Assembly (NCBI GenBank): GCA_033977065.1
Contig: JAXCHI010000003.1
Span: 64,001-128,000 of the forward strand
Length of the DNA stretch: 64,000 bases
Origin: Candidatus Algichlamydia australiensis
GTDB taxonomy: Bacteria; Chlamydiota; Chlamydiia; Chlamydiales; JAJFMI01
Direction: 5' to 3'
Below the pieces are notes generated by a model. The model was given only the letters and a program-made list of their open reading frames with translations. It was not told the origin of the DNA and did no database searches. Shown piece after piece: positions 48,837-52,776 of the stretch (its first letter is position 1; each line of letters starts with the position of its first letter). The position numbers were made by a program, and so were the translations under genes.

Positions 48837-49412
48837 CTATTCGTTTTGCGATTTCCCTCGCAAAATACCTAAATACGACTCTGGGATTTCAATGGAATTC
48901 ATCTCATTTAACTGAGGAAGTCTTTCTTGGGGATGGAAACGAAGGTTGCTAATATTTAAAACCTTTCCTAAAGCAGACTCTGTCGAGCCGGTAAATTGTG
49001 TACTCAACTTGTCCTTCAGGAAACGATCTAAAGATCTCTCTACTAAACCAGCAACTTTAAAACTTTTTGGAAAAATTTGCTGTAATTTCTCTATAGGAAA
49101 ATCTGATTGCAATCTCTCTAAAGTATTCAAATAACTCTGTTGTTTCTTTAGATCCTGGAGCAATACTCCCAAATAATTTGCGTAGACAACCATAGCCAAA
49201 TCTTCACCAGAAAATGAAGCCAATCGCTTTTGGTTATCTTGAATTACTCTCCGAAAAAAATCTTCAGGAGCCGATTCTTCTTTATAAGAAAAATTAAGTG
49301 AAGAGAGCGCAACCTTATTTAGCTCGCGACTCTCTGCAACAGTTTGAAATACCGAGTAAAAACTTTCCTCATCGCCGTGAACCTTATTTGGTGTATTTAG
49401 AGCTATTCCCAT
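48837..49412 (-). CDS. Hypothetical protein
   Basis: 191-aa ORF with AAGGA upstream; no recognisable motif. Confidence 0.55.
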   Translation of the reverse strand: MGIALNTPNKVHGDEESFYSVFQTVAESRELNKVALSSLNFSYKEESAPEDFFRRVIQDNQKRLASFSGEDLAMVVYANYLGVLLQDLKKQQSYLNTLERLQSDFPIEKLQQIFPKSFKVAGLVERSLDRFLKDKLSTQFTGSTESALGKVLNISNLRFHPQERLPQLNEMNSIEIPESYLGILRGKSQNE

Positions 49413-49458
49413 CGCAACTTCCTTATTTAATTATCACCTGTTTTGAAAGAACGGAATT

Positions 49459-50350
49459 GTGTCTGCATCTAATTTTGCAAATAGCAACCCTGATCTAAGT
49501 GAGCAAAACCGACACTCTTTTGATAGTAGCCATAATAGCGTGGTCTCTCTTAACGCAATCTCTAAAGCTAAAGGGATAAAGGGTTCCCTTCTTAGCTCCG
49601 CCAAAGGTGGAATTAGCGTTGGAATTGAAGAGCCTGTTCATGGAGGCGGTCTACTACAATTTTTCTTAGAAAGAAACAGCGAAGAAATTGAGAGTGAGTT
49701 AGCAAGCCTCTATCTAAAGTATTTCTCTTTACTCACTCGAACAACTCTAGTAGCAACTGCAAGGAAAAATGTCCTTTTGCAAAACGAAGATTTTATTCAC
49801 AAAGTTTCCGAAAGAACACATTTTACAGCACTTTTTATTTTGCAAGATATCGAAGTCGAGGGAGATGAAAGAGATAGTATTAGATAGCGTCGTCAAAAGC
49901 ATACAACCATCTTATTTTTCATGTTTGGGCTCCATTTTTGTGCTCAAATGAAGCGGAATTTACAAATTCAGCTTCAATTTCCGCACAAAAATAAGCTGCA
50001 AACATGAAAAATAATCTGATTATAGCCTTTTGACGACACTATCTAGTGGATGTCGAGAAACATCAAGAAGCTTCATTCCCCCTGAAAAAATATATAGAAT
50101 ACTTGTAAGTCAAAGGTTTGAGCAATCCCTCCATCCCCTTCAAGAAAAAGTTGTTTTTGTTCCAAGCATTAAAGAAAAGGTCGAATTTTCTTACAAGGAC
50201 GAACATGGAAATCCCCAAACTTTTTCTATTCCAAATCTATCCATTCCAAACTATCAAAGTATATTAGAAGAACTCTTTCAAAATCGTGTTTGTCAAGACC
50301 AACCTATTTATACTCATATGACAAGACTTCCTCTCCCTGAAAGTGAATAA
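49459..50350 (+). pseudogene. Hypothetical 242-aa gene split by a palindromic element
   Basis: Joining 49883 to 50047 fuses ORFs 49459-49887 and 50030-50350 in frame (..DSI-S-GCRE..). Confidence 0.75.
49884..50042. mobile_element. 159-bp palindromic MITE flanked by TTAG/CTAG
   Basis: ATAGCGTCGTCAAAAG / CTTTTGACGACACTAT; inner ttatttttcatgtttg / caaacatgaaaaataa. Confidence 0.85.
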
Positions 50351-51103: not shown

Positions 51104-51193
51104 TCATTCTTTCCCGCTTCCTTATCGGGTTTAATTCAAAAATACACCAAATATAATTCAATAAAATAAATAAACAAAAACAAAAAAACTACC

Positions 51194-51222
51194 TTGTTTA
51201 ATTTGAATAATAATTGTATAAT
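51194..51222 (+). promoter_or_regulatory. Putative promoter of the two-gene island
   Basis: TTGTTT-N17-TATAAT in a very AT-rich intergenic region. Confidence 0.45.
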
Positions 51223-51244
51223 TAAATAAAAAATATTTTTATTT

Positions 51245-52312
51245 ATGATTACAACAAGAAACCTAATTAGACACCTTCCCGCTACAACTGTATTTCAAAA
51301 AAGATGGAATAGTGGCGATAAAAAAATTAAAGGAGTTATGGAGGAGAGTGGCTTTTTATACCAAAGTCCCTCTGAAAAACTAAAAACATTAGCAATGCAT
51401 TCTCGTGAAACTTATCAAGATGCAGGAATTAATGCTAAAAGATTAGAAACTTGTGAATTATTATTTCAAAAGAGGTTAGCACAGAGCGCACCACATATGC
51501 CAATTAAACCTTCTTTGATTTCTGAAAATCCAACATCTGAATTTTGGCACCGACACCATAAAGTACATGCACCGTTTAAAGATAGGACAGTAGAGTGCTT
51601 TCACACCGACAAAGAGCACGCAGTCCAAAATTTATCTAACCTTTTTAAGGAAGGAAAACTATGCATAGAAACCCCAAATGCTTATATCATTACACACGGT
51701 TGTGATAATAACGATGCTGGGCTAAAGGTGCGACTAAACTTAGAAGAGCTTTCAGTTAAAACTCATGGGATTGCCCTTGATATTTCGCTACACGCTTTGT
51801 CAATGTCAAGAGGGTTAGATACCCTTGTAAATGATGTAATGCCTACTTTTTCAAAATCGGATATTGTATTCCATGATCTCTATTCGGAAAACTCTAATAT
51901 TCACTTTCCCTCAAATTTTCAAAAGCTTGCATTAGCCTTTAGACTAACAGCCATATCTCCTATTCAGACGATTGTCTCCCTCACCAAAAAAATTATTTCA
52001 AGTAGTGACTTCTCTATAATAGCTTTTTTATCAGATGATGCTCTTACTATCAGCTCAATAATTGAAAGAGGTTACAAAAAAAAACGGGGAAGTGCTAATC
52101 TATCTGAGAATTTGGTCCTCCCCTACTATCAAGCAAACCAAGGTAGTACTCTGGGAGTGTGGGACGCAGGAAATATTTATAAGCTAGTGGATTTATGTGA
52201 TGGCAAAATCATTACAATGGACTCAGTTCGAGCATCTGACGACCATAACAATCCGATCAACGTAGTGTACGTAATAGTAGAAAATATCAACACAGTAGAA
52301 AGAAAAAGATGA
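51245..52312 (+). CDS. Hypothetical protein with mitochondrial-presequence-like N-terminus and divergent SAM-methyltransferase-like domain
   Basis: MITTRNLIRHLPATTVFQKRWNS; IITHGCDN, ALDISLHAL, IVFHDL motifs. Confidence 0.55.
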   Translation: MITTRNLIRHLPATTVFQKRWNSGDKKIKGVMEESGFLYQSPSEKLKTLAMHSRETYQDAGINAKRLETCELLFQKRLAQSAPHMPIKPSLISENPTSEFWHRHHKVHAPFKDRTVECFHTDKEHAVQNLSNLFKEGKLCIETPNAYIITHGCDNNDAGLKVRLNLEELSVKTHGIALDISLHALSMSRGLDTLVNDVMPTFSKSDIVFHDLYSENSNIHFPSNFQKLALAFRLTAISPIQTIVSLTKKIISSSDFSIIAFLSDDALTISSIIERGYKKKRGSANLSENLVLPYYQANQGSTLGVWDAGNIYKLVDLCDGKIITMDSVRASDDHNNPINVVYVIVENINTVERKR

Positions 52313-52719
52313 TTCAGTACCCAATTAGATTCCTTAGATCATTTAGCAGAGCATACTCTTCTGTGCGGCAAGTGCCGTTAGAGGCTTTTACAAAAAACCG
52401 TTCCGATCTAAATAAGCAAGATAAGTTTTTTCCACCTACTGAGCAAAGGAGAGAAGAGAGCAAAACAACTGAAAAAGAGTGGAATAGATTTATAAAAAAA
52501 CAGCGCGCCAGTATTGATGAAGCCTTTTATTCTCTAAATCCTTCGTCAAAAGAAAAACCTCCAAAATTTTTTCTTAAATCTGCCCCACCAACCTCTGTAA
52601 CCCGGCAAGACACACTTTTTCCATCTGCTGAGCAGCTCGAAGCAGCGGCAAACGATCCAGAAGCCGGAAAAAGTATCCGGGAATGGAATGCGTTTCTCCG
52701 AAAATTAGGTTCTGAATAA
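52309..52719 (+). CDS. Hypothetical protein with mitochondrial-presequence-like N-terminus and duplicated motif
   Basis: MIQYPIRFLRSFSRAYSS; two QD..FP..EQ...EWN.F repeats; ATGA overlap with upstream gene. Confidence 0.55.
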   Translation: MIQYPIRFLRSFSRAYSSVRQVPLEAFTKNRSDLNKQDKFFPPTEQRREESKTTEKEWNRFIKKQRASIDEAFYSLNPSSKEKPPKFFLKSAPPTSVTRQDTLFPSAEQLEAAANDPEAGKSIREWNAFLRKLGSE

Positions 52720-52776
52720 GAAACAGGCTCTTAACTCGAGAAAGCTCCTAGACAAAAATTTGATTTAGAAAGGATA

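Follow-up and report, generated by a model that had tools for sequence, protein, structure and literature searches.

A putative mobile chlamydial cassette pairing a predicted class I methyltransferase-fold protein with a small candidate partner, both with mitochondrial presequence-like N-termini

Two overlapping genes in the window (the 64,000-nucleotide stretch of Candidatus Algichlamydia australiensis DNA analysed here) probably encode a type III-delivered mitochondrial-matrix methyltransferase together with its cognate partner, the second protein (ORF2) being a cofactor or inhibitor of the first (ORF1). We read this from sequence and from structural models. Presequence chemistry, not presequence sequence, is conserved over the ORF1 family, ORF1 is modelled as a new family within the class I SAM-methyltransferase fold with putative activity, and the cassette appears to be mobile, horizontally exchanged between chlamydiae. 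The initial annotation had proposed that both products begin with mitochondrial presequences; the SAM-methyltransferase fold of ORF1 and the mobility of the cassette were both missing from it. Its presequence reading gains support here, as distant homologues keep the chemistry without the sequence, with import into mitochondria remaining putative.

The gene pair and its surroundings

The features of the pair, in window positions, are:

51104..52776 (approximate limits), no strand: lineage-specific insertion between an rluB-like pseudouridine synthase gene and DUF47
51194..51222, plus strand: candidate sigma66-type promoter TTGTTT-17 nt-TATAAT, read by eye
51245..52312, plus strand: ORF1, 355 aa, whose N-terminus is presequence-like; modelled with a three-helix N-terminal domain and a class I SAM-methyltransferase fold
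51245..51313, plus strand: presequence-like peptide of ORF1, residues 1-23, by composition and the predicted disorder of residues 1-12
51698..51715, plus strand: motif I variant of ORF1, G152-C-D-N-N-D, with D179, F232-R-L and D333 downstream
52309..52719, plus strand: ORF2, 136 aa; amphipathic presequence-like start with R14-A-Y-S-S (putative cut between Y and S), candidate cognate partner

The two genes share an ATGA overlap on the plus strand (ORF1 ends at 52312 and ORF2 begins at 52309) and do lie between other genes, an S4/pseudouridine synthase gene on one side and DUF47 on the other. The gap between these two flanking genes is 15 bases in a genome of the same genus (G001) and 17 bases in one of the same family (G002); because the flanks are directly joined there, the ORF1/ORF2 pair is an insertion. 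Both genes are low in GC3, ORF1 at the 9th and ORF2 at the 13th percentile of the genome. We found no plasmid match to the cassette. The genome containing the window (G000) has 1.80 Mb in 7 contigs with a chlamydial look in its gene content; where the loci of the family have named relatives, these are Chlamydiae MAGs. A single contig covers the insertion without differences and is possibly the source data; the whole stretch is also present in two runs labelled dinoflagellate metagenome, again possibly the source, and from this label the host of this chlamydia may be a protist. Infection of a dinoflagellate by chlamydiae has been reported in the available part of PMC11317633, whose main text has no passage on mitochondrial targeting, methyltransferases or AlkB.

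The pair was also said to have its own AT-rich promoter region. The AT-richness holds (GC 0.32 at 51200-51599), and the candidate promoter lies within an AT-rich tract, some 22 nt ahead of the ORF1 ATG; the promoter itself was read by eye, and the consensus promoter scan does not list TTGTTT-17 nt-TATAAT at 51194-51222. As for the starts, an AAGGAG stands 2 nt before M32 of ORF1. Only 10 of the 256 starts with an SD show this spacing; translation from M32 would lose the peptide and retain most of the conserved part. For ORF2 there is no in-frame start upstream within 66 codons beyond two GTG without SD.

Elsewhere in the window, a MITE-like element of ~165 bp with terminal inverted repeats (49880-50046) recurs nearly unchanged at many genomic sites (90 BLAST rows, roughly half being self-reverse matches). 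It splits one gene into two ORFs (49459-50350), and both halves have 33-39% identity to a 255-aa ORF in another genome, G357, which stands beside an ORF1/ORF2-type cassette there. The adjacency in G357 suggests that this gene and the cassette travel together. The block 48837-50350 is missing at the corresponding position in G001.

Fold, family and cassette architecture

Neither ORF1 nor ORF2 matches Pfam, and Pfam and NCBIfam give nothing informative for the family members. Word-index searches return the query alone, or the query plus one, and a single-protein genome search finds a homologue in 0 of 60 relatives. An exhaustive phmmer search with ORF1 gives 15 matches besides itself at E<=0.001, with 25-40% identity; 14 are credible, and P0017, a repeat protein, was dropped. 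L027, a short marginal match, was also dropped as a homologue. In profile searches over about 400 genomes of the phylum, one of which could not be scored, copies of the ORF1 family (family A) occur in 5 others (6/400 with G000). A pattern scan of the genome contigs with A2 gave 31 matches, 0 of them confirmed, and the five weak matches of A7 are three ABC ATPases, one ordinary methyltransferase and one family member (L058).

From a 22-row alignment, AF2 models ORF1 at pLDDT 88 and pTM 0.87; we use this model, as the single sequence reaches pLDDT 34 only. In it, residues 1-12 are disordered (pLDDT <50), the first helix starts at residue 13, a three-helix N-terminal domain spans about 13-81, and a class I SAM-methyltransferase fold spans about 94-350. 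All of the best 50 structural matches to the seven-stranded Rossmann-like core have the class I fold (Z 13-17), and the Atlas fold assignment agrees with it. AzeJ (Z 16.9, rmsd 3.3 A over 215, the best match), EgtD (16.1, rmsd 3.1 A over 225), ChlM (15.9) and METTL6 (15.6) score close together. Within the whole-model search, the helical region 13-81 has no convincing structural match; a viral fold search with ORF1 returns generic methyltransferases only, and searches of the PDB by sequence give no significant match for ORF1, A4, A11 or the L058 enzyme.

The conserved positions of ORF1 are W101, G152-C153-D154, D179, F232-R233-L234 (after beta4) and D333. G152 and C153 are present in 13/13 family A rows covering them, R233 in 15/15 rows, and D333 in 19/19 rows including family B (described below), while the SAM-site acid D179 is D in 11 rows and N in 4, the N rows being one subfamily. 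Motif I reads GCDNN in ORF1: relative to D/E-x-G-x-G-x-G, the acid before the G and the later two glycines are replaced, and for this reason methyltransferase activity is unproven. The AzeJ/VioH signatures PFNxxGN and RxxYYxxC, taken from the available part of PMC11794875, are in 0/19 rows, with only a P-F/F at the equivalent place. An EgtD identity suggested by eye was rejected (hhalign 3% probability), and PF10017 (Methyltransf_33) has no match in G000 and none in 22 family members. True EgtD-type (PF10017) genes occur in 3/201 phylum genomes searched (L007-L009, in G115, G180 and G039).

A small ORF adjoins the enzyme in 11/14 loci of ORF1's and related methyltransferase families; in family A alone it does so in 6/9 loci, with none in the other three (L024, L026, L032). 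In G357, an ORF2-like gene follows the enzyme with an ATGA overlap, where the enzyme is reduced to a 3' piece (G357:C91:39481-39663) and the partner is intact. In L021 it follows with an 8-base overlap and a TraD-type coupling gene alongside. Presequence-like small ORFs flank the enzyme, convergent or divergent, in G108, G177 and one G201 locus. ORF2 itself has two copies of an F-P...(R/K)EWN motif after its presequence-like start, and a fold search with it found no fold. Homology between partners is weak (ORF2 after residue 30 against the L014 partner, E 0.004; L014 against L021 partner, E 0.0015), and the resemblance rests on an F-P...R-E/T-W/F-N motif, doubled in ORF2. An ORF2 profile gives one new marginal match in 400 genomes (G176, E 0.0075). 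We regard ORF2 as a candidate cognate partner of the ORF1 enzyme, with putative binding.

A decayed family A copy, broken by frameshifts or stops, lies at G220:C2:89047-89816 and is one of the three family A loci in which no small partner is seen. By eye, family A genes stand repeatedly beside AAA-ATPase (DUF4143-type) look-alike ORFs (L022, L024, L021), and in L022 also beside a LuxR-like HTH ORF.

A background scan exposed a second cassette, and its third gene has a homologue elsewhere:

G000:C3:3750-5895 (= L041:1751-3896), minus strand: second three-gene cassette
L050:1423-2145 (G001:C79), no strand stated: AlkB-like homologue, 29% identity, presequence-like start

The second cassette consists of a methyltransferase of 378 aa and two further ORFs, of 93 and 238 aa, and each of the three passes the presequence rule given below. 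The methyltransferase defines family B, which a profile comparison relates to family A (89.5%, E 2e-6). A downstream ORF of roughly 95 aa is present in 4/4 family B loci; family A and family B partners have no detectable mutual similarity. The L058 enzyme, with its partner upstream, represents a further subfamily, related to the family by hhalign (68%, E 5e-5). The 238-aa ORF is AlkB-like, with an HxD...H...R pattern; together with its G001 homologue it reaches a Pfam AlkB-type match at E 0.022, and among the PDB matches listed the top ones are NMAD-1 and ALKBH5-type demethylases (E 0.05-1). The AlkB-like gene in L050 is solitary, adjoining an outer-membrane-type gene.

The five best PDB matches of the family B profile are all METTL6 (E 0.003-0.006), and METTL6 is not matched by a combined A+B profile. 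Two points speak for a capture of the genes from a eukaryote's nuclear-encoded mitochondrial proteins, their presequences being leftovers: this weak similarity to a eukaryotic enzyme, and the presence of eukaryotic clusters among the ORF2 Atlas neighbours, a mitochondrial one included, at scores of 0.79-0.80 that fall short of the reliable level. Every homologue that could be placed has a prokaryote-type locus, however, and leftovers should decay, not last over 13-36% identity, so that we give such a capture very little credence.

Chemistry of the N-termini

The N-terminal features that the initial annotation reported largely stand. ORF1 and ORF2 each have their first acidic residue at position 25, and neither has a hydrophobic Sec core (the best Kyte-Doolittle means over 9 residues are 0.40 and 0.73). 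Residues 1-24 include 3 Arg in ORF1 and 4 in ORF2; the helical moments, as raw values, are 0.59 and 0.92, with 0.25-0.67 in homologues. Both proposed motifs are present, R20-W-N-S in ORF1 and R14-A-Y-S-S in ORF2, with RWNS doubtful as a cleavage site. It aligns with a K-I-N stretch that lies behind the R-x-F/Y-S motif of the homologues and is mature in them, and therefore RWNS may not be the cleavage site. The ORF1 peptide is among the shorter ones of the family, and the ORF2 peptide is the stronger presequence case. The argument that two adjacent signals make chance less likely is weak for the pair alone: 29/1594 crudely called G000 genes pass a filter resembling the annotation's, and 12 adjacent background gene pairs pass a looser rule.

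The deciding test is whether distant homologues keep presequence chemistry without presequence sequence. In the full-length homologues, at 13-36% identity, the N-terminal extensions are of unequal length and diverge in sequence, with a mean identity of 0.19 against 0.29 in the core. They are acid-poor and Arg-biased, and many end in RSYS, RSFC, RCFS, RHFT or RFFT before the conserved part. Chance N-termini should not recur at such identities, and the shared chemistry therefore disfavours chance.

We count with a home-made rule: no more than one D/E in residues 2-25, two or more Arg, Lys not exceeding Arg, and no hydrophobic core. It passes 10/14 family A enzymes and 6/6 partners (window pair included), against 92/1592 background ORFs and 3/161 internal windows of family proteins. 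In controls it passes 12/269 AT-rich genes, 1/12 Inc-like proteins and 4/49 other ORFs in six homologue loci. Three enzymes of EgtD type and an ordinary methyltransferase, all of chlamydial genomes, do not pass it. The family A copy in L024 starts inside the domain. With the window pair excluded, 27/29 family proteins are acid-poor without a signal-peptide core versus 245/1406 ATG-started background genes, and 12/29 versus 7/1406 have in addition an R-x-F/Y/W-S/T/C motif. The R:K ratio in residues 2-30 is 75:38 for the family, compared with 1955:3554 for the background and 284:563 for the family's own mature parts. An R-2/R-3-type cleavage motif of MPP presequences is clear in ORF2 and 12/29 relatives and doubtful in ORF1.

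The P values of these enrichments, 1e-16 to 1e-18, overstate the case, and the counts carry more weight: the filter and the motif set were both written once the first homologues were known, the choice of partners was made by eye, related proteins do not count as independent, and gene starts are crude. A fairer test is given by sequences found after the rule was fixed, namely family B enzymes and partners and the L058 pair. For family B in other genomes, 2/3 enzymes pass (the third has RQFSS at 44), as does 1/3 partners. Both genes of the L058 pair (G191) pass, with RRCFTSS and LHTSSRRCFS.

These results bear on the reading of the pair as a bacterium-internal mobile module (toxin-antitoxin-like, defence or small-molecule methylation) whose N-termini are incidental or whose true starts are further downstream. 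The mobile context with the TraD-type coupling gene beside the L021 cassette, the patchy spread (6/400 genomes), the translational coupling, the small-molecule enzymes among the nearest folds, and M32 as a possible start would all fit it. It leaves unexplained why acid-poor, Arg-biased extensions with R-x-F/Y-S/T motifs recur in three methyltransferase subfamilies, their partners and the AlkB-like gene. The three EgtD-type and one ordinary chlamydial methyltransferases have no such extensions, and the only upstream in-frame alternatives for ORF2 are the two GTG without SD. We consider an internal module decidedly improbable.

Other G000 genes have similar N-termini. A 461-aa ORF with no Pfam match (G000:C2:147674-149059, minus strand) and a 366-aa ORF (G000:C3:461674-462774, minus strand) pass the presequence rule. 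A microbial-type PARG domain protein (G000:C4:474046-475218, minus strand; Pfam E 3e-13) has an acid-free, Arg-containing N-terminus and is another candidate effector.

Delivery, precedents and possible substrates

In the mitochondrial-matrix reading that we prefer, ORF1 and ORF2 would be exported unfolded, most likely via the T3SS, and imported by host TOM/TIM23, and their presequences would be clipped by MPP in host mitochondria; in the matrix, ORF1 would use SAM on a host target, with ORF2 as its cofactor or inhibitor. In G000, SctV- (FHIPEP), SctU- (YscU-type) and CopN-type genes are neighbours. Contig C1 of G000 has a TraD-type gene, which leaves room for a type IV route. It encodes a TraD/TrwB-type coupling protein (G000:C1:75360-76505), and the contig, of 87 kb and 37.6% GC, may represent a conjugative plasmid or island.

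Signals for T3S lie at the N-terminus, lack structure, are rich in Ser and show little conservation. The N-termini could be such signals only, with the enzyme at work in the cytosol or nucleus of the host or in the inclusion, and with ORF2 as a chaperone or second effector. Beyond those general properties and the T3SS genes of G000, this would agree with the high false-positive rate of MTS prediction in Chlamydia given in the available part of bioRxiv 2022.08.30.505961. As a crude T3S proxy we took 37 acid-poor, S/T/P/N-rich G000 N-termini: they have an R:K of 54:72 and the motif in 2/37, and with 1/12 Inc-like proteins passing the rule they argue against secretion signals as the whole explanation. 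Nor would a chaperone retained in the bacterium need such a peptide. We judge this reading unlikely.

Mitochondria-targeted effectors are already known. Most of them affect apoptosis, dynamics or the ATP carrier, and the Legionella pair Lpg0080/Lpg0081 is said to act by ADP-ribosylation of the inner-membrane ANT, unlike ORF1/ORF2. According to the available part of PMC9191684, that pair consists of adjacent effector and antagonist genes with a mitochondrial target, and may serve as a model for an enzyme plus partner, or for a methyltransferase plus AlkB; it differs in using a T4SS, and homology to ORF1/ORF2 is not expected. Ats-1, an effector of Anaplasma phagocytophilum, begins with a cleavable presequence and arrives in the mitochondrial matrix; it differs as a T4SS substrate for which the available part of PMC2824752, which also states the R-2 cleavage motif of MPP, reports no methyltransferase fold and no partner cassette. 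In C. trachomatis, mitochondrial localisation was found for only 5/22 tested MTS predictions, a low yield that weighs against the reading preferred here; CT132, CT529, CT618, CT642 and CT647 are MTS proteins of this species, and three of its proteins are both MTS-bearing and T3-secreted (available part of bioRxiv 2022.08.30.505961). A chlamydial N-terminus is thus usable as T3S signal and MTS, although most of these are Inc or other membrane-type proteins and differ from soluble enzymes of a mobile operon. A search of the full-text literature, covering main texts from mostly open journals, gave no account of a methyltransferase cassette with presequences, whether in chlamydiae or in another symbiont.

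Given import, we rank mitochondrial RNA first as substrate, at somewhat under an even chance; protein comes next, level with a small molecule or SAM turnover, and an inactive binder last. RNA leads because of three weak clues, which are the family B-METTL6 match in PDB, the topology of the ORF1 insert and the AlkB-like gene. The ORF1 model has a helix-plus-hairpin insert after beta5 and a long beta6/beta7. In the available part of PMC11479938, METTL2/METTL6/METTL8 likewise combine the class I fold with an N-terminal region, an insert behind beta5 and an extended beta6/beta7. They resemble ORF1 also in an F-x-L-S/T-A-V/I-x-P-like stretch after beta4; METTL6 requires a partner, and METTL8 is mitochondrial. 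The order of the tripartite RNA-binding elements of METTL6 matches the ORF1 model, in a topology that the same source finds in protein N-terminal methyltransferases too. The m3C signatures given there, WDLFYK and FFKDRHW, are in 0/19 family rows; their place may be taken by the single conserved W101 and, similarly spaced, a D-K pair. METTL2/6/8 have 9-10% identity to ORF1 and Z 14.7-15.6, and are not the top structural match. Against an RNA substrate, small-molecule enzymes match equally or better in structure, and the combined A+B profile loses METTL6. Dinoflagellate mitochondria import their tRNAs, so that a tRNA target there would be nuclear-encoded.

A bolder form of the RNA reading, which we hold only tentatively and think more doubtful than not, is that environmental chlamydiae swap cassettes delivering divergent METTL6/8-like RNA-methylation writers with a specificity partner, and sometimes an AlkB-type eraser, into the matrix, tuning mitochondrial translation. 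If true, this would be categorically new.

A symbiont-encoded matrix methyltransferase with its own partner would, if the preferred reading is true, be a new way of manipulating the organelle. The family supplies about 30 natural presequence-like sequences, and bacteria keeping eukaryote-style presequences over whole operons would bear on the origin of organellar targeting peptides. Chlamydiae rely on host energy, and a mobile, repeatedly acquired cassette would therefore be a testable handle on mitochondrial control in protists.
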